From Pseudoalteromonas translucida KMM 520 (GTDB lineage: Bacteria; Pseudomonadota; Gammaproteobacteria; Enterobacterales; Alteromonadaceae): a stretch of 32,000 nt of DNA. Below, one piece after another: positions 7,423-22,281 of this stretch. A program made the position numbers and the translations under genes. The notes beneath the pieces are model-generated. The model saw nothing but the letters and a program-made list of their open reading frames with translations. It did no database searches and had not been told where the DNA came from. The stretch lies in NCBI RefSeq assembly GCF_001465295.1, contig NZ_CP011035.1, forward strand, positions 360,001 through 392,000, written 5' to 3'. Position 1 is the first letter of the stretch; each line of letters begins with the position of its first letter.

Positions 7423-9894
7423 ATGAACGCTTTTAGGCTGTTAGTTGCCTTTATTGGCTGTATTGCATTACTGCCAATGAGCTATGCGGAGCAAGGATAT
7501 CAAACGCCATCGGCTGAACTTGCTGCATTAGTTGATGCTAAATTATCGCCCACCAGTAGTTTGTCAGACGATGGCCAATGGCTTGCATTGTTTGAGCGAA
7601 AACGTGTAGTGTCGTTAGATGAGTTGGCAAAAGAGGAGCTTAAACTGGCGGGTATTAAACTAAACCCGGCAAACTTTTCACGCTCACGCGTAAGTGCAAA
7701 ATACAGTGCGGTGCAAATTAAGCACGTACAAAGTGGTACGGTTATTAATATTAATAACTTGCCACAAGGTATTATTCGCGCGCCAAAATGGTCATCAAAT
7801 AGTGAGTACTTAGCCTTTGTGGTTGAGCAAAAAAATGATGCGCGTTTATGGTTATACAATGTAAAAACAAAACAAGCGAATGAGCTAAATTCAATAGCGC
7901 TTAACTCTGTCCTTACTGCATCTCCCTATGAATGGCTACCCGATAGCAGTGCCTTGGTTGCAAATTTAGCCGTTAATTTAGGAAAAACCAGATTACAAAA
8001 TGATAGCCAAAGTACGGTGCCTGTTATTCAGCAAAGTAGCGGTGAAAAAGCGCCTGCACGCACTTATCAAAACTTATTAACTGGCCCGTTTGATGAGGCG
8101 CAGTTTAAATTTTATGGCCAAGGGCAACTTGCCTATATAACGCTTGATGGTCATGCGCAACCGATTGGCCGCCCTGCGTTGTTTAAGTCATTTTCAGTAT
8201 CACCCGACTCAACCAATATATTGGTGGCGAGTATAAACGAGCCATTTTCGTATCAAGTACCATACAACCGCTTTGCTACAACATGGCAAATATTGGGAAT
8301 GCGTGGTTTTTCATTAGTTGAGCTGGCAAAACAACCATTAGCCGATAACATTCCACAAGGCTACGACAGTGTACGAACTGGCAGACGTGACTTTGAGTGG
8401 CGAGCCGATCAAGGTGCAGAGGTTATTTGGGCCGAAGCGCAAGATGGCGGTGATATGAAAACCGATGTTGAATATCACGACTTTATTTACAGCTTACGTG
8501 CACCATTTAAACGCGAGCCTAAACTGTTTGCTAAAGTAGAGCGTCGTTATTCGGGTATAGAATGGGGTAACGATAATATTGCCATGCTCAGTGATTGGCG
8601 CTTTAGTGACCGCCAAGTGCGCACCTATATTATTGCCCCTCGTGATGCTGATAAAAACCGCATATTATTTTCAGAGCGTAGTTACAACGATGCCTACAAA
8701 GACCCAGGCAGAGCAATATATGAGCGCAATGATTTAGGCAGCAAGGTAATAAAAGTGGTTGGCGGGCGCTATCTATTTTTACGTGGTAATGGTGCATCAG
8801 AGCAAGGTAATGTGCCATTTTTAGATCAATACGATGTAAAAACTAATAGCAGCAAACGTTTATGGCAATCAGCGGCACCTTATTATGAGCGTGTTCGTGC
8901 GTTACTTGATGACGAAGGCAAGCGTTTTATTACTATTAGAGAGTCTAAAACAGAGCAACCTAACTTTTTTATTCGTGATTTAAATAAACAAAATTTAACT
9001 CAAATTACTAATTTTGAGCACCCTTACCCGGCATTTAAAGGCGTAACAAAAGAGCAATTACGCTATACCCGAGATGACGGTGTTGAGCTTTCAGGCACAC
9101 TTTATTTACCACCAGGTTATGATAAAACTCAAGGCCCATTACCTGTATTAATGTGGGCATACCCGCTTGAATATAAAGATAAAGCAGTCGCTTCTCAAGT
9201 GCGTGAGTCGCCTTATGAGTTTACCTCTATTGGTTACTGGGGCCCGATGCCTTACTTAGCTAAAGGTATTGCGGTATTTGACGATCCTAAAATGCCAATT
9301 GTAGGTATTGAGGGCAGTGAGCCAAACGATAACTTTAGAAAGCAACTAGTAGCCAGCGCACAAGCTGCTGTAGATGTATTGGTTAAAAAAGGCATTGCTG
9401 ATAAAAACAATATTGCCATAGCGGGTCATTCATATGGTGCATTTATGGTGGCTAACTTATTAGCACATAGTGATTTGTTTAAAGCCGGTATTGCCCGCAG
9501 TGGCGCGTATAATCGCACCTTAACGCCGTTTGGCTTTCAAGGCGAAGAGCGCGATTTTTGGCAAGCTCAAAATGTGTACGCAAACATGTCGCCATTTTTT
9601 CATGCCGAAAAAATTAACGAGCCAATGCTAATGATTCACGGGCAAGAAGATCCGAATTCTGGCACCTTCCCAATGCAAAGTGAACGTATGTACGCCGCGT
9701 TAAAAGGCTTAGGCAAAGAAGTGCGTTTAGTCATGCTGCCACATGAAGCACATGGCTATCGAGCCCGTAAAAGCTTACTGCATGTGCTGTGGGAGCAAGA
9801 GCAGTGGCTAAACAAATACCTGTTAATGGATGAAGAGGCTGAGCCGGTAAAGGTAACAACTGAGCTAGTGGCAGAGCCAACACCGAGCCAATAG
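7423..9894 (+). CDS. S9 family serine peptidase (prolyl-oligopeptidase / glutamyl-endopeptidase-like), secreted
   Basis: Signal peptide MNAFRLLVAFIGCIALLPMSYAEQ. Catalytic triad motifs: GHSYGAF (Ser), IHGQEDPNSG (Asp), PHEAHGY (His). AAAGGA RBS lies upstream of the ATG. Confidence 0.9.
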   Translation: MNAFRLLVAFIGCIALLPMSYAEQGYQTPSAELAALVDAKLSPTSSLSDDGQWLALFERKRVVSLDELAKEELKLAGIKLNPANFSRSRVSAKYSAVQIKHVQSGTVININNLPQGIIRAPKWSSNSEYLAFVVEQKNDARLWLYNVKTKQANELNSIALNSVLTASPYEWLPDSSALVANLAVNLGKTRLQNDSQSTVPVIQQSSGEKAPARTYQNLLTGPFDEAQFKFYGQGQLAYITLDGHAQPIGRPALFKSFSVSPDSTNILVASINEPFSYQVPYNRFATTWQILGMRGFSLVELAKQPLADNIPQGYDSVRTGRRDFEWRADQGAEVIWAEAQDGGDMKTDVEYHDFIYSLRAPFKREPKLFAKVERRYSGIEWGNDNIAMLSDWRFSDRQVRTYIIAPRDADKNRILFSERSYNDAYKDPGRAIYERNDLGSKVIKVVGGRYLFLRGNGASEQGNVPFLDQYDVKTNSSKRLWQSAAPYYERVRALLDDEGKRFITIRESKTEQPNFFIRDLNKQNLTQITNFEHPYPAFKGVTKEQLRYTRDDGVELSGTLYLPPGYDKTQGPLPVLMWAYPLEYKDKAVASQVRESPYEFTSIGYWGPMPYLAKGIAVFDDPKMPIVGIEGSEPNDNFRKQLVASAQAAVDVLVKKGIADKNNIAIAGHSYGAFMVANLLAHSDLFKAGIARSGAYNRTLTPFGFQGEERDFWQAQNVYANMSPFFHAEKINEPMLMIHGQEDPNSGTFPMQSERMYAALKGLGKEVRLVMLPHEAHGYRARKSLLHVLWEQEQWLNKYLLMDEEAEPVKVTTELVAEPTPSQ

Positions 9895-10265
9895 TAAAGT
9901 ACGTGTTTATGCCGTGAGAGCAAGAAGACCCACTCTAAATCTCACTGCACCTTCCCAATGCAAAGTGAACGTATGTACGCCGCGTTAAAAGGCTTAGGTA
10001 AAGAAGTGCGTTTAGTCATGCTACCCCATGAAGCACATGGTTATCGAGCCCGTAAAAGCTTACTGCATGTGTTGTGGGAACAAGAGCAGTGGTTAGATAA
10101 GTACTTACTTAATGACTCTGCTGAGCCGGTAAAGGTAACAACTGAGCTAGTGGCTGAGCCAACACCGAGCCAATAGTAAAGTACGTGTTTATGCCGTGAG
10201 AGCAAGAAGACCCCCCTTAATCTCACGGCACCTTCCCAATGCAAAGTGAGCGTATGTACGCTGCA
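9661..10265 (+). repeat. Tandem direct repeat, period about 281-285 bp, about 2.1 copies, covering the 3' end of the peptidase gene and its 3' flank
   Basis: GCACCTTCCCAATGCAAAGTGA recurs at 9662, 9947 and 10228. TAGTAAAGTACGTGTTTATGCCGTGAGAGCAAGAAGACCC recurs at 9892 and 10174. Unit 3 keeps only about 38 nt. Confidence 0.9.
9947..10176 (+). pseudogene. Relic duplicate of the last ~77 codons of the S9 peptidase gene (track ORF 9958..10176)
   Basis: The 72-aa ORF is nearly identical to the C-terminus of the 823-aa protein (MQSERMYAALKGLGKEVRLVMLPHEAHGYRARKSLLHVLWEQEQWL...). No RBS precedes its ATG and there is no N-terminal catalytic part. Confidence 0.75.
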
Positions 10266-11233: not shown

Positions 11234-11541
11234 TGCTTGAATAGATTAATTACCCGGCATTACAATATTAAAAAAGCAGTTTTATTTTTTTATTAGCTCC
11301 TAAAACGGGTAAAAAACATTGATTATGTAAAAATGAGCTAAAAGTATTAACCTCAGCTGAACGCCTTGCTGTGGTTACATTTGTTGCCATTTTAATTACA
11401 AGTAACAAAAGTTTCTTAATTTTCTGTATTGCAATTTGTAACAAATTCGGTAATTCTAACAAAATATTCAAGGAAGAATGAATTAAGTCAATGGCTTAGC
11501 TACATGCTTTCTTGCCTTTTAAATGTACAGGGAATTGCCAC

Positions 11542-12246
11542 ATGAAAAAAACTATCCTTTCTGCGCTTATTTTTGCTCCTCTTTTTGCTGGCTGTGTGTC
11601 TACAGCTGATACTTCTGGTGACTTAGATCGTAACGCTGTTGTTGCTGAGTTATCTACACGCATGGATACACTTGGTTACCAACACCCGGTAGACATTGTG
11701 CCAGGCATCAATGAATTTCTAAATGCATCGGCTATGGTGCTTGAGCGCCAATATAAAGTAATGGGTCAGTACCGTACGTCTACTGATAATCATCGTGATG
11801 TTCAAGCTTTTTTATATGCATACAAAGATGCAACACCTGAAGAGTTACAAACAGCTATAACTGAATTTGACGCGGGTGCAAAAAATAAAGATGAAAAAAT
11901 TGGTCATAAAATTGCCGCCTATAACCAAGCAAACGAAGGTATTTATCAACAAAACGTCGCACTTGCTACCGACTTAACCGTTGAAATTGCAAAGTCTGCT
12001 TATATTTTATCTCAATATAAAAATGAAGTAGCGATGGCATTAGCGCTCAGTGCTGGCAGTAGTATGATGGGTATGTTTGCTGGTGAGGAAGATGAAGCAG
12101 AAAATCCAAAAGATATTGGTGTGGCATTGTTAAAAGCAAAAGATCAGCTTTCGCTAGCATTAGAAGCGAATGAAATTATTGAATTAGAGCAAGCGACTAT
12201 TTCATCAATTAATGAGTTACAGCTAGAGCTAGAAGCGAAAGGTTAA
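11542..12246 (+). CDS. Helical lipoprotein of unknown function (operon gene 1)
   Basis: MKKTILSALIFAPLFAGC has lipobox LFAGC. AGGGAA lies 8 nt upstream of the ATG at 11542, which I prefer over the TTG at 11512. The remainder is alpha-helical and acidic, with no motif I recognise. Confidence 0.7.
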   Translation: MKKTILSALIFAPLFAGCVSTADTSGDLDRNAVVAELSTRMDTLGYQHPVDIVPGINEFLNASAMVLERQYKVMGQYRTSTDNHRDVQAFLYAYKDATPEELQTAITEFDAGAKNKDEKIGHKIAAYNQANEGIYQQNVALATDLTVEIAKSAYILSQYKNEVAMALALSAGSSMMGMFAGEEDEAENPKDIGVALLKAKDQLSLALEANEIIELEQATISSINELQLELEAKG

Positions 12247-13148
12247 TGAAAACAAGCATTTTTGCCTTTTTATTGGCATTTGCTTGTACAAGCTCAGCGC
12301 AAAGCTGGCCTGTTTGGGTAGTTCAATCGCAACAAAGTGATGAATACATTACTGCGGTGGGTATTGGTGAGAGCCGCTTAGCTGCAAAGCAAGCGGCTTT
12401 AGCCGAGATTGCAACCCAACTCAGTGTTGATGTGAGCACCCAGCAAACACAGTCGTTGAGCAAGCAAAACAATAAATTAACCAGCTATTTTGAGCAAGCA
12501 ACAACACTCAATAGTTTACCGTTTACATTAACGGGGGTTGAAGAGTTAAATGCAGTTGCACAAAACAACTTATTTGCTTTAAAAATGGGTGTTAAAAAGT
12601 CGGTTATAGTAAAAACGTTAAAATCTGATTTATCGGTACTATCACGAATTACCCCTCCAGAAAAAAATGCTGAGCAACGTTTTATCTGGGCACTGCAAAA
12701 TAGTGGTTTACTAAACCAAGCGATAAAAAAGTTAGCAGTATTGGAGCATTTGTCAGGCCCTGAGTTGTTTATTAAATCAACACTAAATAATTTATTAACT
12801 GAACAGTCAATTGCACTTAATGCAGTTGCGTGCGATGTGATTGGTGCAATCAGCGCACACGAAATTAAATCAGCTTTAAACGACGCATTACCTCACAGCG
12901 GCGACACACAACTATGGCTTCGTCCGCAATTGCGTTGGCAATACGCGCAAACTACAACTAAACACTCTGCAAAAGCCATTTTATCACTAGCACTAACACG
13001 CAGTACTAGTCCTTTTAAAGTGTTATTGCAACACGATTTAAATGCCCAAGAAAGTGCCGCTACGCGGGAAAACGCCAAACAAAAAGTGATTCAAAACTTA
13101 GTTCAACAACTTAAAGCGCCTGCTAGCCAATGGCTGTTTGATATTTAG
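12246..13148 (+). CDS. Secreted LPP20-like domain protein (operon gene 2)
   Basis: The ATG overlaps the previous stop (TAATG). Signal peptide MKTSIFAFLLAFACTSSAQS. LPP20-family pattern: WPVWVV...YITAVGIGESRLAAKQAALAEIATQLSVDVSTQQ...NNLFALKMGV. Confidence 0.7.
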   Translation: MKTSIFAFLLAFACTSSAQSWPVWVVQSQQSDEYITAVGIGESRLAAKQAALAEIATQLSVDVSTQQTQSLSKQNNKLTSYFEQATTLNSLPFTLTGVEELNAVAQNNLFALKMGVKKSVIVKTLKSDLSVLSRITPPEKNAEQRFIWALQNSGLLNQAIKKLAVLEHLSGPELFIKSTLNNLLTEQSIALNAVACDVIGAISAHEIKSALNDALPHSGDTQLWLRPQLRWQYAQTTTKHSAKAILSLALTRSTSPFKVLLQHDLNAQESAATRENAKQKVIQNLVQQLKAPASQWLFDI

Positions 13149-13156
13149 GAATAATA

Positions 13157-14281
13157 ATGAAATTAGTAAAAAAATTAACCCTGTCAGCATTAACACTTGC
13201 CTTATTAGCTGGTTGTCAAACAAAGCCTGGCAGCAGTACACAAGTAGAAAAAGTAAGTAATCGTGCATCGAATGCGGTTGTTGCTAAAAGTGCCTACGAC
13301 TTTAAAGATCACGATATTACCATTCCTGCCTATTTTGATACTCAAGGGCTAGAGCGTTGCACCTTTGATGTTAACAATGAGGCCGATAGTTGCCCACTGA
13401 AAAAGCCCATAGTACGTATGTATTTTGACTTAGCCCAAGTAGCTGGCAGTGGCATTGGTGTAGATGCAATGCGTGAGTTCGATAATGAAAATTTACTCTT
13501 TATGCTCGAAAACCAGTTTGCCGGTATTAGTCGTTTTAGAATTATTACTCGCGATGACGATACAATTTCCAAAGAGCAGCAAATAATATTAGAACAACAG
13601 GGTATAAAAACGGCCGCTAAAAGAGCTGAAGTAAGGGCATTAATGCCAGACTTTATTGTAAAAATAGATTCACTCAGAACACTAAAAACCGAAGGGGGTT
13701 ACAGCGATTGGGCCAATTACACGCTTGAGCTTACCACTGGGGTTATTAACCCTCAAACTCGGGAAAAATTATCACACCCCAACCTTGGTAAAATACGGGT
13801 TAAGTCAGAAGACGTGCGCGAACGCTCAGAATTGAAGTTTCACCGAGTAAATAATCGTTATGTTGCTGGTTTTCGATTTGATGATAGTGCCCATGTAAAT
13901 GCAGTAATCAATGATATGGGCTCGCGCGGTATTGATATTTTACTTACCCGTATGCTCAGTGAAATGCCTGCAACAGCTCAAGTGTTAGGTATTAAAGGAA
14001 ATAAAATTAGCCTTGATCGTGGCCAAAATGCCGGCGTATTACCTAACGAAACTATGATTATTTTTAGTTATGAAGCGGGTTTTGTGGAGCCAATTGGCGT
14101 TGCGAGTGTCATGCCTTCTAGTAACAGTGCTCAAGGCGAAATTATCCGCTGGAAAAATTCTGACATTGCAGATGACGTTAAAGATAAAGCCGAAAATGGT
14201 ATTTATCGCCCAGCAAAAGGTGCAAAAATATTTGCTGTATCGGTAGGCACACCAGCTGGATTTTTGGAGAACCGGACATGA
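13157..14281 (+). CDS. Lipoprotein with a CsgG/LpoB/FlgO-like alpha/beta domain and a C-terminal beta domain (operon gene 3)
   Basis: Lipobox LLAGC in MKLVKKLTLSALTLALLAGCQ. The central pattern LLFMLENQFAGISRFRIITRDDDTISKEQQIILEQQG...LMPDFIVKIDSL...YTLELTTGVINPQTREKLS resembles the CsgG/LpoB family layout. The C-terminus (AQVLGIKGNKISLDRGQNAGVLPNETMIIFS) is a small beta-barrel-like pattern as seen in FlgT_C-type domains. Similarity was judged by eye only. Confidence 0.65.
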   Translation: MKLVKKLTLSALTLALLAGCQTKPGSSTQVEKVSNRASNAVVAKSAYDFKDHDITIPAYFDTQGLERCTFDVNNEADSCPLKKPIVRMYFDLAQVAGSGIGVDAMREFDNENLLFMLENQFAGISRFRIITRDDDTISKEQQIILEQQGIKTAAKRAEVRALMPDFIVKIDSLRTLKTEGGYSDWANYTLELTTGVINPQTREKLSHPNLGKIRVKSEDVRERSELKFHRVNNRYVAGFRFDDSAHVNAVINDMGSRGIDILLTRMLSEMPATAQVLGIKGNKISLDRGQNAGVLPNETMIIFSYEAGFVEPIGVASVMPSSNSAQGEIIRWKNSDIADDVKDKAENGIYRPAKGAKIFAVSVGTPAGFLENRT

Positions 14282-15645
14282 TCAAAAAGCTTTGCTTATT
14301 AGCGTTATGCTCCTTAAGCGTACAAGCACAAGTGGATGTTTTAGCTGATGGAACATTACAAACCCAGGCGTGTGCTTATGGGCGAGGTGGCACTGCTATT
14401 TCTGGTGCAAAAGCGCAGGCAAGTGCTGAGCTTATAAGTTTTATTAAAGGTAATAAAAGCCTGACAACGCAAAGCGCACAGCAGCATTTAACAACAAATT
14501 TAACAGATGATGCCGCTAATTTATATGAGCAGCAACGCACTACTATGATCGAAGGTTTGAGTGCAGGTGCAGTCCCTTTAAATTACTCAACGCCAACACT
14601 CAGTGGTAACGACACTTGCATGACGGTAAGCCTTAACCCACAAGAATTAGGTGAAATACAAGAGCAAAGCTGGCAACAAGCGACCCAAGATATAAGTGTG
14701 ACAGTAATAGGTCAAGGCTGGAAAAAAGAAGGTAAAACAGCATTAATTAATGCTGAGCAAGATGCACTACAAAGAGCTGTATCTCAGGTGGTGGGGGTTT
14801 GGCTTACGCAGCAACACACGCAATCGTCAAGCATGAGTATGGATATTGTTGATGGTAATGAGTCAACCAATATGCAGGAGTTGATTGGCCAGCAGCTTTC
14901 TAGTCATAGTGAAGGACTGGTTAAAGAGTGGCAGACGCTCCAAAGTAAGCAGTTAAAAAATGGTGGCGTAGAAATTACGATAATGGCGGTAGTAGAAAAA
15001 GCACCGCTAATTCAGCAGGCATCGCAATTGTTGAGCATGATTGGCTCACCTAGAGTACAAGTAATCGCTCCTGAGCCATTAAAAACAGAGTTAAAAGTTT
15101 GGTTGAGTGAGCAAGGCATTGAAGTAGGTGATGCGGCGAGTTTAGTTATTTATGCACAATCTGATGTTATTAAACGTGGTAATAATCGTCAACTTCGCTT
15201 AAGTGTTAATGTGCGAGATTTAGCTGGCAATATTTATGGGAATTGGAAAAACGATCCTTCATTTATGTCTTTGCCTGATGACCCTTACGTAGAAAAAGAT
15301 TTAATGGCAGTACATTTAGCCAGTGAATCGCAGTCAAAAGCATTGCACAGCACGCTTAATACTGCGTTTACTCAAGTTGTTGCAAGAGGCGGATTAGTAA
15401 GAGAAGTTCTGTTGCCAAGTAATAAATTAACGCAACCAGAAAAATTGCATGCAGTATTAAGCACGTTAGGTGGTGTAAGCGACGTAGCTATCGATAAGCG
15501 CAGTGACTATACAGTTGCAAGCCTTAGATACAAAGGTAATACCGGTGAACTTGCCCATGCACTTGATCAAGCATTAGCAACGATTACCGTAAAAACACTT
15601 TCTAAAATTACAATCGAAAACGACTTTACACTCAGGTACAAATAA
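14278..15645 (+). CDS. Periplasmic FlgT-like / LPP20-like multidomain protein (operon gene 4)
   Basis: ATGA start/stop overlap with gene 3. Signal peptide MIKKLCLLALCSLSVQAQV. Two LPP20/FlgT_N-like modules: GGTAISGAKAQASAELISFIKG and VIGQGWKKEGKTALINAEQDALQRAVSQVVGV...GVEITIMAVV. Confidence 0.65.
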   Translation: MIKKLCLLALCSLSVQAQVDVLADGTLQTQACAYGRGGTAISGAKAQASAELISFIKGNKSLTTQSAQQHLTTNLTDDAANLYEQQRTTMIEGLSAGAVPLNYSTPTLSGNDTCMTVSLNPQELGEIQEQSWQQATQDISVTVIGQGWKKEGKTALINAEQDALQRAVSQVVGVWLTQQHTQSSSMSMDIVDGNESTNMQELIGQQLSSHSEGLVKEWQTLQSKQLKNGGVEITIMAVVEKAPLIQQASQLLSMIGSPRVQVIAPEPLKTELKVWLSEQGIEVGDAASLVIYAQSDVIKRGNNRQLRLSVNVRDLAGNIYGNWKNDPSFMSLPDDPYVEKDLMAVHLASESQSKALHSTLNTAFTQVVARGGLVREVLLPSNKLTQPEKLHAVLSTLGGVSDVAIDKRSDYTVASLRYKGNTGELAHALDQALATITVKTLSKITIENDFTLRYK

Positions 15646-15651
15646 GGACAG

Positions 15652-16950
15652 ATGATGAAATTGAAAATATTAACATTAGCAATGGTTTTAGCTATGCCTG
15701 CAATTGCAGCTGAAGAATTTAGCTTAACAGACATGATCCCAGCTCGCCCTGGTGCACAAGTAGCTAACGCAGATCAAGCCCAAGTGTCGGGCGATGTAGT
15801 GGTTGCAAAAGATACTAATGTAGCGGTAGCTGTTGCTCATCAAGCGCTGATTGATGACGACGAAGACGGTATTAAAATGATTCAAGTAGGCAGTGGTACT
15901 GGTATTTTATCAATTGGTAGTGCTAGCTATAACACTTATGACAACATGAATGCGACATTGCTTTCAAAACGAGGCGCTTATAATCAGGCTTATTTAATTG
16001 CTAAAAAGCAATTAATAGAAAACATGAAAGGTGTTGAGCACCAATGTAGCAATGTAGTAAGTGCAACGATGGATGTAATAGATACCGGTGTTGAGGGTGT
16101 TGCAAACGAGCAAACTAATATGATGGAAGCGTGTAAGGAGTCGGTATCGGGTTCTTTAGCCGGTTTTGTTACTTATGACGTGTACGATAACAATGAAGAA
16201 AAGGGAGTACGCGTTAGTTTAATTTCAACACCTAAAACACGCTCGCAAATAAAAGGTAATCGTGGTGCAGTTGCTGTGACTACAGAGCCAAATGCTATTT
16301 TTCAGCAAGTAATTAGTGATGTTAAATCAGGTGTTTTACCGCCGGTTGGCGCAAAAGTGTTAACTAACGCCGATAGCGGAGAAGTAATAGTACTAGGTTA
16401 TGGTTCGGCAATAATACGCGGTAATAAAAATAATAAAGTGGCGCGTAAATTAAAAGGTGCTGCTAAATCACAATCGCAAACGCGTGCACGCTCAGCGCTT
16501 TTAGCCACTATGCAAGGAGAGAAAGTATATTGGGAAGGTAGCTTTGACGAAAAGCAAATGGAAGGTACTCAGCAGTTTGAATACGACGATCCTAACCTAA
16601 ATGATCCACAGCAAGTAAAAGTGCTTGAAGAGGATCGAAATACATTTTTAAACCAATTAAAAATGTCTGATGAATATGCAACATTATCTAAAGGTAAATT
16701 ACCACCAGGTGTGAGTGTAAAGAGCTTTGCAAGTGATGACGGCTTTTGGCAGTACAGCGTAGCAGTTTATGCGCCAAGTTTAGAAGCAACGGCGCGCCAA
16801 GCAGCTAAAGAAATGACAGGTAATAACGGCAATACAGTAAATGGTATGAGCCGCTCTGGTCATAAAATTAAAGCAGTGGGTGGCTTAAACGAAAAAGTGG
16901 CTAATCCACAAGGTGCTTCGGGTAAAGTAGCGAGTGAAGAGGAGCTTTAA
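15652..16950 (+). CDS. Periplasmic protein with two LPP20-like modules (operon gene 5)
   Basis: Signal peptide MMKLKILTLAMVLAMPAIAAEE. Module 1: IGSASYNTYDNMNATLLSKRGAYNQAYLIAKKQLIENMKGV...GVRVSLIS. Module 2: VLGYGSAIIRG...AAKSQSQTRARSALLATMQGEKV...FWQYSVAVYAP. AAGGA RBS is present. The second ATG at 15655 is an equally good start. Confidence 0.7.
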   Translation: MMKLKILTLAMVLAMPAIAAEEFSLTDMIPARPGAQVANADQAQVSGDVVVAKDTNVAVAVAHQALIDDDEDGIKMIQVGSGTGILSIGSASYNTYDNMNATLLSKRGAYNQAYLIAKKQLIENMKGVEHQCSNVVSATMDVIDTGVEGVANEQTNMMEACKESVSGSLAGFVTYDVYDNNEEKGVRVSLISTPKTRSQIKGNRGAVAVTTEPNAIFQQVISDVKSGVLPPVGAKVLTNADSGEVIVLGYGSAIIRGNKNNKVARKLKGAAKSQSQTRARSALLATMQGEKVYWEGSFDEKQMEGTQQFEYDDPNLNDPQQVKVLEEDRNTFLNQLKMSDEYATLSKGKLPPGVSVKSFASDDGFWQYSVAVYAPSLEATARQAAKEMTGNNGNTVNGMSRSGHKIKAVGGLNEKVANPQGASGKVASEEEL

Positions 16951-17663
16951 TGCTAGCATCTATTTTAGCGCTTTCGTTGGTGGCTTCGGCCACCTTCGAC
17001 TCAGAGCAAACAATTGAACAGCAAACTGCTTTTTTTAAAAGTCAGGCTAATGGTCAATACGCCCGAGTTAAGGCGTTAAAATCGAGTGCAAAAAATGCGC
17101 TTGAGCAGGCATGTCGTAATGCATTGACCCTGCCACAGCGCAGTATTATAAAAAGTACCTTAGCTAATAAGCTTAATATTACCTTACCAGAATCGGTGAG
17201 TTTTATTGAAGCTGAGGTTACGGGGTATAAGCAAGAAAAACAGCAAGAATGGCTAACCTGTACAGGTATTGTTACCCCTGCTGCTGCAGATATAAACGAG
17301 GCAGGCTTAGCAATTAGAGCAGCATGGCAAGTAGGCAAACAGCAAGATAAAAACAACTTGCGTGCATTACTTAAAATAGCAATGGCTCACCCATCGACTA
17401 TATCAGATGCCGTTGCACTTGTTGCCGATCAATCACCGCAAAGCGAGCGCCTAGCTTACCTGGATAAATACTTAGTAGCCGATGAACTTAAACTTGATGA
17501 CGCTAAAGAGTCTGTGGCGCAAGCATGGTTTAAAGACATGCGCTACCAACAAGTTATTTCATTAATGCAACAGTGTGAAAGTGTTGATTGTAAACGCTTA
17601 GGTTTAGCCGCAGAGGCTGAGTATGAGCAGCAAAGCGCAGATGATTTAAGCAGCTACTTTTAA
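16950..17663 (+). CDS. Exported helical protein of unknown function (operon gene 6)
   Basis: TAATG overlap with gene 5, with GAGGAG RBS. The N-terminus is hydrophobic (MLASILALSLVASATF), a weak signal with no basic n-region. It has five Cys residues and a helical, TPR-like C-terminus. Confidence 0.6.
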   Translation: MLASILALSLVASATFDSEQTIEQQTAFFKSQANGQYARVKALKSSAKNALEQACRNALTLPQRSIIKSTLANKLNITLPESVSFIEAEVTGYKQEKQQEWLTCTGIVTPAAADINEAGLAIRAAWQVGKQQDKNNLRALLKIAMAHPSTISDAVALVADQSPQSERLAYLDKYLVADELKLDDAKESVAQAWFKDMRYQQVISLMQQCESVDCKRLGLAAEAEYEQQSADDLSSYF

Positions 17664-17681
17664 TTTATAAGGATATAAAAA

Positions 17682-18899
17682 GTGTACTTGAAAAGTAAAT
17701 ACTTACTAAGGTTAAGTACTATTGCGTGCCTTACTTTAAGTTTAAATAGCCTAGCCCAAACAAGTGATGAAGCCGAATTTGAAGCTTTTTTAAAGCAGCG
17801 TCAAAGCGAGTTTAGTCAGTACAAACAACAACAAAAGCAAGAGTTTGAAGCGTTTGTGAGTGCCTGGCGTGATGCAGAAAGCGCTTATTTAAAACAAATA
17901 ACTGCAAAATGGCAAGACCCAAATCTACCCAGCTCAAAAGTGTGGGTCAAATATAGTGACGATTTAAATAAACGCACCAGTGTAAATTTTGAAAGCGGTG
18001 AAGTGGTTGTTGAGTTATTAAGTAGCAAAAGCGATGAGCAAGCCGTTGAATATGCAAAAGAGCAGTTAAACGAGCTCTCACAGGTAACCGTAGATAAAAC
18101 GCTTGCCAAAGATCCAATTTACATTACAGCTAATAACACACTTAATAGTAAAAGCATTATTTCAACAGGTAAGCCTTTAAATAAAAAGGTTAAACAAAGT
18201 AAGCCACTAACAGCTACTCAATCTAAAAAAGTAGCTGAGCAAACAGTGCTCTCTACAGAAATTGTACAAGAGGTACTAGCTGCAAAGGCTCCTGTAATAA
18301 CTAAGCAAAAAGACAGGGTGACAATTAGCTACAAATTGCCTGCTAATACGCTTTCAAACCAAGCAAAGCGTTATTTGCCAGAGGTAAAAGTACAAGCTGC
18401 GCGTTACAACTTAGAGCCAGCCTTATTGTTAGCAATAATACATACTGAGTCGAGCTTTAATCCACTGGCACGCTCACCTATCCCTGCATTTGGTTTAATG
18501 CAAATAGTGCCTACTTCTGCCGGTAAAGATGTAAGTAACTTCTTGCAAGGTAAGCCGTTATTGCTTAGCCCAGAGTATTTATTTCAGGCTGATAATAACG
18601 TAGAAGCGGGGAGTACTTATCTGCATATTTTAAGTAATCGCTATTTTAAAAATGTACGTAACGAGCAATCAAGACTGTATATGAGCATAGCCGCATATAA
18701 TACTGGCCCAGGCAATGTAGCTAAAACTCTCAGTGGCTCAAACTCACTAAATCAGGCAAGTATTGCTGCTAATGCAATGTCGGCAGATAAGATTTATACC
18801 TATATGGTTAATAACTTACCTGCACAAGAAACCCGTAATTATTTACAAAAGGTGGTTAAACGCACCGCATATTATCAAGCACAATTGAAAGGAATTTAA
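17682..18899 (+). CDS. mltC: MltC-family membrane-bound lytic murein transglycosylase (operon gene 7)
   Basis: SLT catalytic region AIIHTESSFNPLARSPIPAFGLMQIVPTSAGKDV...AAYNTGPGNV matches the E. coli MltC signature (ESSFNP...GLMQVV..TAGKDV...AYNGGAG). A long N-terminal domain sits where MltC carries DUF3393. GTG start with AAGGA upstream. Signal sequence with a possible lipobox TIAC. It may be an operon-dedicated paralogue rather than the housekeeping mltC. Confidence 0.8.
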   Translation: MYLKSKYLLRLSTIACLTLSLNSLAQTSDEAEFEAFLKQRQSEFSQYKQQQKQEFEAFVSAWRDAESAYLKQITAKWQDPNLPSSKVWVKYSDDLNKRTSVNFESGEVVVELLSSKSDEQAVEYAKEQLNELSQVTVDKTLAKDPIYITANNTLNSKSIISTGKPLNKKVKQSKPLTATQSKKVAEQTVLSTEIVQEVLAAKAPVITKQKDRVTISYKLPANTLSNQAKRYLPEVKVQAARYNLEPALLLAIIHTESSFNPLARSPIPAFGLMQIVPTSAGKDVSNFLQGKPLLLSPEYLFQADNNVEAGSTYLHILSNRYFKNVRNEQSRLYMSIAAYNTGPGNVAKTLSGSNSLNQASIAANAMSADKIYTYMVNNLPAQETRNYLQKVVKRTAYYQAQLKGI

Positions 18900-18901
18900 A
18901 T

Positions 18902-19471
18902 ATGAAAAAGTTATTACCAGTAATAGCCGCTTTGGCGTTAGGTGCGTGTTCAAGTACAGAGCAAACGCAATCAGCACCGCTTGCTAAAAATGATTCAGTA
19001 CCAAATTGGGTACTTTTACCTGTATCAGATAAAGGTTTAGCTTCTTCGTCATGTGTACCTTGGTCGGGCAGTATGTCTACAGATAGAGCGCAGGCCATTG
19101 CAGCAGCGCGTGCAGATCTATCGCAGCAAATACAAGTAAAAGCAAGTGTTATGGACCGCCTATATCAACGTAAAGCGCAAAGTAATGATGAGCTAAATGT
19201 AGGTGGTACATTTGAGCAAGTAAGCAAACAAGTTGCAGAGCAAAGTCTTGTTGGCGCTATACCTCAAGAGGTAGCATTTGCACGTTTAGATGGCAAAAAA
19301 CAACTTTGTACCTTAGTAGTAATGAGCAACACACAAGATACCTTTAATAACCTAGTGGCTAAATCGGGCAAACGTTTAGACCCAGGTTCACGCGAAGCGC
19401 TTTACGAAGAGTTCAAAGCGCAAAAAGCAATGAAAGACTTAGAAAAAGAACTCGATAATTTAAATAAGTAA
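18902..19471 (+). CDS. LPP20/FlgP-like outer-membrane lipoprotein (operon gene 8)
   Basis: Lipobox LGAC in MKKLLPVIAALALGACSS. LPP20 pattern PNWVLLPV...STDRAQAIAAARADLSQQIQVKASV...KKQLCTLVVMS. AAAGGAA RBS. Starts 2 nt after the gene 7 stop. Confidence 0.8.
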   Translation: MKKLLPVIAALALGACSSTEQTQSAPLAKNDSVPNWVLLPVSDKGLASSSCVPWSGSMSTDRAQAIAAARADLSQQIQVKASVMDRLYQRKAQSNDELNVGGTFEQVSKQVAEQSLVGAIPQEVAFARLDGKKQLCTLVVMSNTQDTFNNLVAKSGKRLDPGSREALYEEFKAQKAMKDLEKELDNLNK

Positions 19472-19631
19472 TTGCTACACATTATTTTTAATTTAATAGC
19501 GTAATTAGCTTTAATTAAATATACAGCCGGTTAGCCTTATTTAGGCTAGCTAGTTAATACCTATGAGGGCTAATAAGCGCTCATTTTTTGTGAAATAAAA
19601 ACTCACTGACTATTTTAAAAAGGACTAAAAA

Positions 19632-19880
19632 ATGAAAGATGTTTTTTTCTTTGAATCTATGCTGACACCTAAAATCATTACTTTTGTATATTGGTTAATG
19701 TTACTGGGTGCTGTAATTTCTGGTGTAAGTACTATGTTTATGCAGTACGGTGGTGGTTTTTGGGCCGGGCTTGGTATTATTGTTGGTGGCGTAATTGGTG
19801 CTAGAATTTGGTGTGAACTACTTATCGTTTTATTCAAAATTCACGAGAATTTACAAAAAATAGCTAATAAATCAGAATAA
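19632..19880 (+). CDS. Small two-helix membrane protein, DUF4282-like
   Basis: 82 aa beginning MKDVFFFESMLTPKIITFVYWLMLLGAVISG and ending IWCELLIVLFKIHENLQKI, which fits the DUF4282 pattern. AAGGA lies upstream. The antisense ORF 19625..19837 is low-complexity and rejected. Confidence 0.65.
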   Translation: MKDVFFFESMLTPKIITFVYWLMLLGAVISGVSTMFMQYGGGFWAGLGIIVGGVIGARIWCELLIVLFKIHENLQKIANKSE

Positions 19881-20031: not shown

Positions 20032-22281
20032 TTACTTTTTGCTGTTACTGTTACGTTGTTTTAACCAAGAAATAAACTCAGCTGCGGGCATAGGATAGGC
20101 CATATAGTAGCCTTGCATACCGGTAATATTAAGTTGTGTGAGTGTTTTAGCTTGCTCTGCGGTTTCAACGCCTTCGGCAATAACATTAAAGCCAAGGTTG
20201 TGCGCAAGCGAGATTATAGTACTCACAATGGCAGACCCTCTATTACCTTCATGTATTTTATCAATAAAGCTTTTATCTATTTTTAGTTCACTAACGGGGT
20301 AAGTGTGTATATAGGCTAGCGATGAATAGCCAGTGCCAAAATCATCAATCGAAAACTTGAACCCTTTAGCTTTGAGTTGCTGCATTTGTGCAATATTTTC
20401 AGCCATATCATCCAGTAAAATACTTTCGGTTATCTCCAGTTTAAATCTTGTAGGGGATATACCAAACGCATCTACAATGCTAACAATATTGTTGTATAAG
20501 GAATGTGTTATAAACTGGCAGGCGCTAATATTAATAGCAACACAAAATGAATCATAAAGTTGCTGTGTTTGCTCTAAGGTTTTAATTAACATGCAAGCGT
20601 CAAACAATACACTGCTTTGCAGTTGATCAATCAGACCAGATTGTTCTGCAACAGGAATAAAGTAGTAGGGTGATATAATGCCTTTTTGGGGATGTATCCA
20701 GCGAATTAATGCCTCAGCGGCTATAATGTTACCTTGGCAATCAAGTTGCGGCTGAAAGTAAGCCACAAATTGTTTTTCTTTTATTGCAGTTATAATGTCG
20801 CTTTCTAGCTGTAAACGTAAGTCTAATTCGTGTTGCAGTGCCGGATCGTAAAATGCAAAACGATGGCCGCCAAGTTTTTTGGCGCTATACATAGCTGTAT
20901 CAGCCCGCTTTAGTACATCGTTGCTTGTTGTGTCTGGGCCTTCAATAAAACTAATGCCAATACTGGCGGTAATTTTGTAACTACAGTTGCTTATTTTAAA
21001 TGGGTTTTTGAAGCAGTCGAGTATTTGGTTAGCACACACTATTGCCTGGCTTTGTGCACTGTTTTTATTACTACTTAGGTGCTTAGGTAAAATTACAAAT
21101 TCATCACCACCAATTCGCGCAATAATACCTGCTTTTTTAATCACGGCTTTTAACCGCATAGCAACTTCGAGTAAAACCTCGTCGCCAATAACATGGCCTA
21201 ATGAATCATTAATACGCTTAAAGTCATTTAAATCTAAAAATAATAGAGTGCCAAATGAAAGCTGCTTTTTAGATTTGCTGATCATTAATTCGAGCGTGTC
21301 AGTTAGCATGCGGCGATTAGGTAGAGTGGTTAATGGATCGTAAAATACCAGTTTTTTTACTTGCTCTTCAGCAAGCTTACGCTCGGTAATGTCGCGTATC
21401 ATCCATAAAACATGTTTTTTATTTGGCTCATCAAGTAGGTAGTTATTAATAACTGATGTTCTAGCTTCAAAAATATGTCGGTTACCCATACAATTAAGTT
21501 CGTACTCGTACAGCTGTACTTGCTCTGTTTTCAGTGTTTTAGTAATGATAGAGATTACTTTATTAGGATCACCTAATGGCAGTGAGCTTATGCGTTGCTC
21601 ATTACTTAAGCTATTACATTGTAGCTCGTTGCTAGCACCATAACTTTCAATATACCGCGCTTGCTCATCAAAAATGATTCCTAAATCGGGGATCACTTCA
21701 ATAAATGCTTTTAACTTATCGTTAGAGCGTTGTAGCTCTAAACTAAGTGCTTTTTCTCTTGCGACAGAGCGCGCTTTTTCTATTGCTAGGCCCGATAAAT
21801 GAGTAAAGCGTTCAATAAGCTTTAAATCTAATGCGGTTGGTGCGTTTGGGTACATGTAATAAACGGCAAAACTACCAAGTACTTTGTTATCTGAGGAAAA
21901 AATCGGAGTAGACCAACATGCTTGCAAACCATGTGCTAGTGCAATAGCTTTATAATTAGCCCAAAGTGGGCTAGTAGCTATATTACTAACAATAACTTGT
22001 TGCTGCGTATACACCGCAGTGCCACATGACCCTACATTATCACCAATTGTAACACCGTCTATTGCTTGGCAATATTCAGGGGGGAGTTTAGGCGCAGCAC
22101 CATGGCGAAGTTGGTTGCCTTCTAAAATTAAAATTGAACTTTTAGCATTTTTAGAGTCAATTATCGCTTCAATTTGCTCGCAAATAGTATGCAGGCACAG
22201 GTGTATATCTACACCTAATGCGATCTGCTCTATAATCTGTTGTTGGGCTGCAAATAATGCTGAATGTTGTGCTGGAGTCAC
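20032..22281 (-). CDS. GAF-PAS-GGDEF-EAL cyclic-di-GMP signalling protein
   Basis: N-terminal GAF-like region. GGDEF domain with RIGGDEFVIL and RxxD-like context. EAL domain with EALIRW, DDFGTGYSSL and EGVE. GTG start at 22281 with AGGAA 9 nt upstream. Confidence 0.9.
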   Translation of the reverse strand: MTPAQHSALFAAQQQIIEQIALGVDIHLCLHTICEQIEAIIDSKNAKSSILILEGNQLRHGAAPKLPPEYCQAIDGVTIGDNVGSCGTAVYTQQQVIVSNIATSPLWANYKAIALAHGLQACWSTPIFSSDNKVLGSFAVYYMYPNAPTALDLKLIERFTHLSGLAIEKARSVAREKALSLELQRSNDKLKAFIEVIPDLGIIFDEQARYIESYGASNELQCNSLSNEQRISSLPLGDPNKVISIITKTLKTEQVQLYEYELNCMGNRHIFEARTSVINNYLLDEPNKKHVLWMIRDITERKLAEEQVKKLVFYDPLTTLPNRRMLTDTLELMISKSKKQLSFGTLLFLDLNDFKRINDSLGHVIGDEVLLEVAMRLKAVIKKAGIIARIGGDEFVILPKHLSSNKNSAQSQAIVCANQILDCFKNPFKISNCSYKITASIGISFIEGPDTTSNDVLKRADTAMYSAKKLGGHRFAFYDPALQHELDLRLQLESDIITAIKEKQFVAYFQPQLDCQGNIIAAEALIRWIHPQKGIISPYYFIPVAEQSGLIDQLQSSVLFDACMLIKTLEQTQQLYDSFCVAINISACQFITHSLYNNIVSIVDAFGISPTRFKLEITESILLDDMAENIAQMQQLKAKGFKFSIDDFGTGYSSLAYIHTYPVSELKIDKSFIDKIHEGNRGSAIVSTIISLAHNLGFNVIAEGVETAEQAKTLTQLNITGMQGYYMAYPMPAAEFISWLKQRNSNSKK

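Follow-up and report, generated by a model that had tools for sequence, protein, structure and literature searches.

The 32,000-nt stretch of the Pseudoalteromonas translucida KMM 520 genome analysed here (contig NZ_CP011035.1 of assembly GCF_001465295.1, positions 360,001-392,000, forward strand; hereafter the window) carries an operon of eight genes, named G1 to G8, which as a system is unnamed and unannotated and which we rate as a non-flagellar kit of envelope proteins of the H-ring and Lpp20 type. The explanation that we favour, tentatively and at somewhat short of an even chance, is that its products would assemble by themselves and independently of energy into a scaffold that lies in the periplasm, has its anchors in the outer membrane, corresponds outside the flagellum to the H-ring or basal disk, and is furnished with a peptidoglycan-remodelling enzyme of its own. 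To our knowledge, proteins of the FlgT, FlgP and Lpp20 types are known almost only as add-ons that widen and stiffen flagellar motors. The cluster, a compact and mobile kit of six to eight genes uniting FlgT- and Lpp20-type folds with a private lytic transglycosylase, could make both the evolutionary source and the non-flagellar role of such proteins testable, and since its carriers include the tractable Vibrio harveyi and some V. natriegens strains, there is a direct experimental handle on it.

The eight genes are consecutive open reading frames (ORFs) on the plus strand, occupying positions 11542-19471 of the window in the ORF listing. Successive intergenic gaps from G1 to G8 measure -1 (TAATG), 8, -4 (ATGA), 6, -1 (TAATG), 18 and 2 nt, exactly as an earlier note made from the letters of this DNA had claimed, and each start is preceded by the purine-rich, Shine-Dalgarno-like stretch which that note had also ascribed to every ORF (in order, AGGGAA, AAAGG, AGGAA, GGAGAA, AAGGA, GAGGAG, AAGGA and AAGGAA). 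All eight products begin with a hydrophobic N-terminus and none contains a second hydrophobic segment, the Kyte-Doolittle mean over 19 residues staying at or below 1.45 beyond residue 30. The lipoboxes LFAGC of G1, LLAGC of G3 and LGAC of G8 are conserved across homologues of many genera, and G2, G4, G5, G6 and G7 carry signals of the signal-peptidase-I type, so that the claim of a Sec or lipoprotein signal on every product was upheld. Conserved cysteine pairs in G3, G4, G5, G6 and G8 fit folding in the periplasm. Likewise, no conserved Walker A motif occurs in the eight products, in agreement with the earlier assertion that the operon encodes neither an ATPase nor a polytopic membrane protein, and no beta-barrel family in Pfam or NCBIfam is matched by the window proteins of the cluster; it is the lack of all three in the cluster of the window that leads us to read the putative assembly as passive and energy-independent. 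A reading of G4 as an ATPase, prompted by a match to GWKKEGKT, was rejected, the motif being unconserved in the family and G4 an exported protein.

A first line of evidence for the scaffold is the fold of G3, the most conserved component. G3 consists of a disordered tether of ~25 residues, an alpha/beta region of the CsgG/LpoB/TolB-N type and a C-terminal beta-barrel, with a conserved Cys68-Cys79 pair. Structures were modelled with AlphaFold2 for G3 and G4 only and compared with the PDB by Foldseek. The top match of the G3 model (pLDDT, the value predicted for the local distance difference test, 78.9; predicted template-modelling score, pTM, 0.75) is Vibrio FlgT (8z5n_0, E 7.4e-11; 3w1e, E 2.5e-10; probability 1.0), in alignments of 303-315 columns of ~356. 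The next match is CsgG (4uv2, E 2.5e-5), followed by HpaA, PelC, LptE, GNA1162 and TolB, and the C-terminal barrel also resembles the N-terminal barrels of the F1-ATPase. The paper on the FlgT crystal structure reportedly names TolB-N and the F1-ATPase barrels as secondary resemblances of FlgT itself, and the scaffold reading draws on these shared resemblances as well as on the best match.

At the level of sequence the relations of G3 are of another kind. G3 has no relatives in Pfam, NCBIfam or the PDB and lies below every Pfam threshold; when 1.84 billion representative proteins were searched exhaustively with its profile, a small family of 64 representative clusters at 50% identity emerged at E<=1e-3. 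When 20 remote relatives were tested for Pfam domains, two carried LpoB above its cut-off (31-32 bits), one of them CsgG as well (35.2 bits, again above cut-off), and a few more LpoB or CsgG matches fell below the cut-offs. Judged by its model, G3 belongs among the outer-membrane lipoproteins of the LpoB/CsgG/TolB-N fold group and resembles FlgT in its overall build, and it is no paralogue of FlgT at the level of sequence. The earlier description of the operon as a paralogous kit has to be qualified in this respect: the fold of G3 is FlgT-like, and a FlgT domain is found neither in G3 nor in its 20 remote relatives.

The second line of evidence comes from G2 and G8, which by their sequences are assigned to the LPP20 family (PF02169, SHS2-type). 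The N-terminal domain of G2 matches LPP20 directly (34.7 bits against a cut-off of 25.9, residues 22-82) and is followed by a C-terminal extension of ~200 aa holding a second, weak LPP20-like segment; the two regions align with each other at an hhalign probability of 86%, a weak internal repeat. G8 combines a tether of ~17 residues, a PxWV motif and a conserved Cys51-Cys136 pair; on its own, the window protein matches LPP20 weakly (14.9 bits), the domain is matched by 11 of 24 members of its family (best 7.6e-8), and Helicobacter pylori Lpp20 (5ok8, E 4.9e-9) is matched by the profile of the family over virtually the whole of its length. In the all-against-all hhalign comparison of the eight families, made both whole and by domain, G2 and G8 were the only two linked, with a probability of 96% for their LPP20 domains after removal of the signal peptides. 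FlgP, Lpp20 and FlgT share the SHS2-type fold, and FlgP and FlgT form rings associated with the outer membrane (PMC12222027); membership of G2 and G8 in this family is a further support of the scaffold. A defence-system reading was rejected, PADLOC having returned only a spurious Csn2 match of 18 bits for G2.

G4, the invariable neighbour of G3, is likely of the LPP20/FlgT_N type and probably contains several SHS2 modules, the signals being weak. Its model, of moderate confidence (pLDDT 67.9, pTM 0.39), shows two N-terminal beta-alpha-alpha-beta-beta modules followed by two more alpha/beta domains. Its sequence contains a CAYGRG motif, and Cys32 and Cys114 are a conserved pair. Foldseek matches are weak throughout (LptE 5.7e-4, FTT1539c 7.5e-4, HP1454 9e-3, Tip-alpha 1e-2, Lpp20 0.3), and LPP20 is matched, weakly, in only two of 26 family members. 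A remote homologue (locus L078) exceeds the cut-off for Pfam FlgT_N (29.6 against 28.8 bits) and scores 20.8 bits for LPP20 in the same region, and in UniRef some homologues are named 'Flagellar assembly protein T N-terminal domain...' or 'LPP20 lipoprotein'.

The enzyme of the operon is G7, in which a Sec signal is followed by a Gln/Glu-rich stretch, by an MltC_N domain that is partial and by the catalytic domain, SLT (Pfam: SLT 83.2 bits, Mltc_N 28.7 bits). The catalytic motifs ESSFNP, GLMQI and AYNTG are intact, and alignment with MltC in the PDB (9vi7, E 2.8e-38) places ESSFNP on its counterpart, which confirms the lytic transglycosylase that the earlier note had seen here. With 174 bits for NCBIfam PRK11671 against an equivalog cut-off of 375, and with no conserved lipobox, G7 is by sequence an intact MltC-like lytic transglycosylase and no MltC orthologue. 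Its domain order and catalytic motif are those of MltC, a membrane-bound lytic transglycosylase of family 1B, from which it departs by its Gln/Glu-rich N-terminal extension and, in 15 related loci, by the pairing of the G7-type gene with a gene for a bitopic inner-membrane protein. FlgJ/SltF, VirB1 and EtgA are transglycosylases dedicated to secretion systems or flagella and encoded together with them; G7 resembles them in being encoded inside an operon of envelope proteins, and the presence of an intact enzyme of this kind is a third argument for the scaffold.

The remaining three products, G1, G5 and G6, have no assignable fold. The lipobox cysteine of G1 is invariant in 26 sequences and the protein is probably sorted to the outer membrane; its alignment reads by eye as helix-rich, and relatives were absent from Pfam, NCBIfam and the PDB. 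G5 has a DFDLTDxxPA motif right behind the signal peptide, a Cys132-Cys161 pair and a C-terminus of the form NPQGASG...DL, all conserved; it has no relatives in the PDB or Pfam apart from one of 17 family members that matches LPP20 weakly, and although by eye it looks like tandem SHS2 modules, hhalign gave no support for this, linking neither G5 nor G6 to LPP20. In G6, the cysteine pairs 55-104 and 209-214 and a C-terminal ADDLSSYF tail are conserved, and scattered weak matches of tetratricopeptide repeat (TPR) type occur in the C-terminal half of single members. Profile searches of the G1, G3, G4, G5 and G6 families against PDB sequences returned nothing significant; Pfam and NCBIfam gave family matches among the eight window proteins for G2 and G7 only, and a Pfam scan of each family member rescued G8, left G4 marginal and returned nothing for G1, G5 and G6. 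The earlier characterisation of the operon as composed exclusively of LPP20-, FlgT- and CsgG-like proteins beside the transglycosylase thus holds for G2, G3 and G8, weakly for G4, and is not supported for G1, G5 and G6.

The cluster is inherited as a unit far beyond the source strain. Of the four outcomes that the earlier note had named as refuting its reading (no such folds, no co-occurrence outside this strain, a sole flgO/flgP/flgT set within the flagellar regulon, a match to a characterised system), none was observed. A scan of one genome per species for G3 relatives gave 66 loci, which place it in ~66 species of marine Gammaproteobacteria from several orders: Pseudoalteromonas, Colwellia, Shewanella, Parashewanella, Idiomarina, Pseudidiomarina, Marinobacter, Alteromonas, Thiopseudomonas, Ferrimonas, Catenovulum, Vibrio, Photobacterium, Grimontia, Enterovibrio, Aliagarivorans and others. 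Architectures were scored with family hidden Markov models, built from the window genes and run against all ORFs of the loci. The order G1 to G8 is identical in 28 of the 69 loci scored; 16 contain the full set of eight with G2 and G1 in exchanged positions, and 13 lack G5 and G6 while keeping G1-G4 with G7 and/or G8, in orders such as G7-G2-G1-G3-G4-G8, G2-G1-G3-G4-G8-G7 and G8(-)-G2-G1-G3-G4. A few loci hold only G1-G4, some of them on short contigs, and G5 is present in 50 of the 71 loci fetched. The conserved unit is the near-universal core G1-G4, usually accompanied by G7 and G8, to which G5 and G6 are added as an accessory pair; the eight-gene unit originally proposed is therefore one common arrangement among several, some of which include a ninth gene. 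Even in remote variants (L074, L078/L079) the adjacency of G3 and G4 and the company of SLT and LPP20 genes persist, and this tight co-inheritance across the species loci is a fourth argument for the scaffold.

The ninth gene family (242-272 aa), absent from the window, stands beside the transglycosylase gene in the 15 related loci (L001:15211-16017, L005:7301-8077 on the minus strand, L011:14579-15373, L060:6339-7067 and 11 others). From a cytoplasmic N-terminus its product passes through a single membrane helix (..IGNWNDT..) into a periplasmic domain of ~200 aa, which hints that some variants of the cluster reach the inner membrane. The family has no significant relative in the PDB, and kinship with PrgH was rejected as a match at chance level (E 1.1).

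Within genera the distribution is very patchy. Each architectural type spans several genera, and more than one type can occur within a genus; Shewanella, Colwellia, Marinobacter and Idiomarina each contain G3 at both ~70% and ~50% identity to that of the window, and the flanks differ completely between genera. Mixed architectures within genera together with unlike flanks point to horizontal spread. Neither direct or inverted repeats of the kind that border islands were found at the flanks, nor a GC anomaly at the cluster, and members of the P. distincta group share the genes upstream of the cluster (ThrE, glycosyltransferase, S9 peptidase).

Comparison with known systems places the cluster nearest the H-ring of the Vibrio polar flagellum (FlgT, FlgP, FlgO), in which 26 copies of FlgT and 26 of FlgP lie under the outer membrane, the C-terminal tail of FlgP occupying a groove of FlgT (bioRxiv 10.64898/2025.12.04.692373). 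The likeness resides in the FlgT-type architecture of G3 (a TolB-N/CsgG-like alpha/beta region and a C-terminal beta-barrel), in the LPP20/SHS2 domains which G2 and G8 have in common with FlgP, in the lipidation of G8, again as in FlgP, and in the export of all parts with no energy source. The cluster differs from the H-ring in lacking linkage to flagellar genes and flagellar promoter motifs, in adding G1, G4, G5, G6 and a lytic transglycosylase, and in that its G3 is a lipoprotein, whereas FlgT is a soluble periplasmic protein. Pfam FlgT_N, FlgT_M, FlgT_C and FlgO find no match at E<=1 in the eight window proteins, and with sequence membership in FlgT or FlgO and flagellar linkage both lacking and G3 predicted to be lipidated, we take the cluster not to belong to the flgOPT set. 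It likewise recalls the basal disk of Campylobacterota (FlgP/FlgQ) and the H. pylori lpp20 operon (HP1454, Lpp20/HP1456, HP1457), in that the G8 profile aligns with Lpp20, that G4 is a secreted multi-domain protein with its weak structural match to HP1454, the first domain of which is Lpp20-like (PMC11756786), and that several SHS2 proteins are encoded together; the H. pylori operon, unlike the cluster, has neither a FlgT-like lipoprotein nor a transglycosylase. With the CsgG/LpoB/PelC/LptE fold group G3 shares its N-terminal alpha/beta fold and the lipoprotein anchor, and it is set apart from that group by the extra FlgT-C-like barrel and by a cluster without curli, Pel or Lpt partners. No characterised system matching the cluster was found and no paper on it, whether by family names, organism or locus tags or in full text, and every homologue looked up, proteins of V. 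harveyi, V. owensii and V. natriegens among them, is a 'hypothetical protein'.

In the scaffold that we envisage, all parts would be exported by Sec and would be suspended in the periplasm from the outer membrane's inner face, with G1, G3 and G8 lipidated, sorted to the outer membrane as judged from the residues after the cysteine, and held on flexible tethers of ~17-25 residues. The FlgT-like lipoprotein G3 and its invariable partner G4 would form the core, which the Lpp20/SHS2-type proteins G2 and G8 might join much as FlgP docks on FlgT in Vibrio, and the conserved disulfide pairs would steady the parts in the periplasm. G7 could open or remodel the peptidoglycan locally, such that the assembly is inserted or fixed, and G5 and G6 would be an optional add-on module, their conserved terminal peptides perhaps serving as docking tails. 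The role of such an assembly is likely structural, reinforcing or spacing the outer membrane and the cell wall either alone or around another envelope-spanning machine encoded elsewhere. A more far-reaching reading is an organelle that stands free, shaped as a ring or disk, or else a collar that encloses some non-flagellar envelope machine; attached to the outer membrane, it would be an 'orphan H-ring' of FlgT-like and Lpp20-like proteins with its own cell-wall-cutting enzyme. This we consider possible and rather doubtful. Should the kit form a ring, it would represent a new organelle of the envelope, from which the H-ring could plausibly descend or of which it could be the source; were the 'orphan H-ring' true, the proteins of H-ring and basal disk would belong to a wider family of envelope scaffolds, the source of the recruited flagellar accessories, and the Lpp20 family would gain its first non-flagellar function.

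Several observations weigh against the scaffold, the ring or disk form of which is argued by analogy. Membership in the LPP20 family does not imply a ring, since Lpp20 of H. pylori is dispensable for motor structure; it has no known function, and deletion of hp1456 was without effect on the motor (PMC11756786). In the SHS2 family, ring formation correlates with an insert after the SHS2 helix, a beta-hairpin in FlgP (PMC12222027), and the corresponding inserts in the G4 model (residues 59-106 and 177-214) are helical, disordered or of low confidence. TM-scores between G3 and FlgT are only 0.27-0.28, the folds of the domains agreeing and their mutual orientation differing. Similarly, the absence of FlgT domains from G3 and its remote relatives counts against the scaffold, as do the sequence-level links of G3, which run to the LpoB/CsgG clan with its other roles in PBP (penicillin-binding protein) activation and secretion channels. 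Three of the eight proteins have no fold to argue from, and in several loci that keep G1-G4 no G7 gene lies within 10 kb.

The proteins could instead be an accessory of the polar flagellum encoded at a distance from it, assembling as one more disk or ring on the outside of the LP/H-ring of this sodium-driven flagellum in cluster-bearing species. This we hold to be unlikely, even though the host genera are mostly polar-flagellated marine Gammaproteobacteria and the closest structural relatives, FlgT and the FlgP fold class, are known almost exclusively as motor accessories. In H. pylori, Lpp20 and HP1454 co-purify and interact with the motor accessories FapH and FlgP, a point in favour of such a role, against which stands the unaffected motor of the hp1456 deletion (PMC11756786). 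The genomic context speaks for a non-flagellar system. No flagellar gene occurs in the window or, in the annotated flanks examined, within 10 kb in any of the ~66 loci, as the earlier suspicion of a non-flagellar setting had implied; the other genes of the window encode DoxX, hemerythrin, peptidases, ThrE, a glycosyltransferase, LysE, DUF4282, GGDEF-EAL and LysR proteins, TonB receptors, a RIO kinase and a sulfotransferase. Flagellar promoter motifs (sigma-54, TGGCAC-N5-TTGC; sigma-28, TAAAG-N14-16-GCCGATAA), sought upstream of every cluster, gave three matches with at most two mismatches against ~1 expected by a rough estimate, and none in the window, so that by this rough estimate they do not appear to exceed chance. 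Furthermore, the cluster of V. harveyi lies on chromosome 2, whereas the polar flagellar genes of vibrios, flgOPT included, lie on chromosome 1, and the patchiness within genera of a family of only 64 clusters sets it apart from core motor parts.

A role in the regulation of cell-wall enzymes, in which lipoproteins of the LpoB/CsgG clan (G3 and its partners) would position or regulate G7 or a distant PBP in the manner of LpoA/LpoB or NlpI and would form no large ring, appears improbable. It would suit the remote G3 relatives that exceed the Pfam LpoB cut-off, the completeness of G7 as an enzyme by sequence and the weak TPR-like hints in G6, and the pairing of the transglycosylase gene with a bitopic inner-membrane protein in 15 loci is as expected of an envelope-spanning cell-wall module. 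In its disfavour, the loci that keep G1-G4 with no G7 nearby show that the enzyme is no obligatory centre of the cluster, the whole fold of G3 is nearer to FlgT than to LpoB, and a set of six to eight dedicated structural proteins is large for the regulation of a single enzyme. If true, this role would be a new one for the LpoB/CsgG clan.

Finally, a curli-like (type VIII-like) secretion system, in which an oligomer of G3 would be a CsgG-type outer-membrane channel exporting, for example, G5 to the surface, is highly improbable: CsgG is the second-best structural match of G3 and is recognised by Pfam in one remote relative, G3 is a lipoprotein as is CsgG and unlike FlgT, and curli secretion too needs no ATPase, but G3 itself has no Pfam match to CsgG, no proteins like CsgA, CsgB, CsgE or CsgF and no amyloid repeats occur in the window, the highly conserved and cysteine-bonded G5 looks like a folded periplasmic protein, the long hairpin of the G3 model belongs, as judged by eye, to the motif of the core sheet, and the FlgT-C-like barrel of G3 is missing from CsgG.

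Table 1. Positions and properties of the eight genes and of the regions that border them, in coordinates of the window.
Feature	Position	Strand	Size	Description
AT-rich leader/promoter region	11234..11541	+	308 bp	upstream of G1; ~34% GC
G1	11542..12246	+	234 aa	lipoprotein, LFAGC, Cys18 then Val-Ser; present in all loci
G2	12246..13148	+	300 aa	periplasmic, signal-peptidase-I signal then WPxWV motif; universal core
G3	13157..14281	+	374 aa	lipoprotein, LLAGC; most conserved component
G4	14278..15645	+	455 aa	periplasmic, multi-domain; universal core, always directly 3' of G3
G5	15652..16950	+	432 aa	periplasmic; mean column identity 61%; accessory, always with G6
G6	16950..17663	+	237 aa	periplasmic; accessory, found with G5
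G7	17682..18899	+	405 aa	GTG start; MltC-like family-1 lytic transglycosylase
G8	18902..19471	+	189 aa	Lpp20-family lipoprotein, LGAC then Ser-Ser
Two hairpins	19525..19592	+		3' of G8; minimum free energy -32.7 kcal/mol, z = -2.69 against shuffled sequence

The block is delimited, as had been proposed, by the AT-rich region upstream and by hairpins downstream (Table 1). The leader contains a single sigma-70-like match at 11237-11266, such matches being no commoner than in shuffled sequence, and no sigma-54 or sigma-28 consensus. The second hairpin (~19563-19590), AUGAGGGCUAAUAAGCGCUCAU followed by a run of U6, looks like an intrinsic terminator; one mismatch in its stem caused it to be missed by a simple consensus scan. 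Beyond it, 160 nt past G8, lies a gene for a small DUF4282 membrane protein (19632-19880). A DUF4282 gene is also found 3' of G8 in P. distincta (L006), Parashewanella (L026) and Shewanella sp. OPT22 (L032), and at no other locus, and it may be a loosely attached passenger of this subtype of the cluster.

Among the fetched loci, two show signs of decay: in a Marinobacter strain G5 is split into ORFs of 272 and 143 aa (L003:12518-13798), and in a Parashewanella metagenome-assembled genome the halves of G7 lie ~1.3 kb apart (L026:14470-17005). A contig binned as Polaribacter, of the Bacteroidota, agrees in gene order, ORF lengths and scores with a Colwellia metagenome-assembled genome of the same project (L035 and L036), and is probably a binning error and not a presence outside the Gammaproteobacteria. 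The genome labelled 'Colwellia sp. MB3u-8' (L009) has a cluster of Pseudoalteromonas type, with a G3 83% identical to that of the window against 52-61% in other Colwellia and with no similarity in the flanks, which suggests either horizontal transfer or a mislabelled genome.

The more distant relatives of G3 occur in varied surroundings. Very remote ones (L075 and L076/L077, E 8e-24 and 2e-10) have different gene settings: one stands among many small genes with no Pfam match, accompanied by an SLT protein of 173 aa and a NERD protein, and the other on an island that also contains Mrr-like, helicase/MZB, methyltransferase, PLD and IS66 genes. A gene for a DHH/DHHA1 phosphoesterase lies directly 3' of the cluster in Vibrio echinoideorum (L001:16076-17053) and in the remote L078/L079 type (L078:11292-12278), and near the cluster of the window there is instead a GAF-GGDEF-EAL gene on the minus strand (20032-22281); a link of the cluster to nucleotide signalling is possible. 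Upstream in the window, the S9-peptidase gene (7423-9894) ends in ~283 bp that recur in tandem ~2.2 times with 91-94% identity (9645-10264), and the repeat gives rise to a 72-aa ORF (9958-10176) that duplicates the C-terminus of the peptidase.

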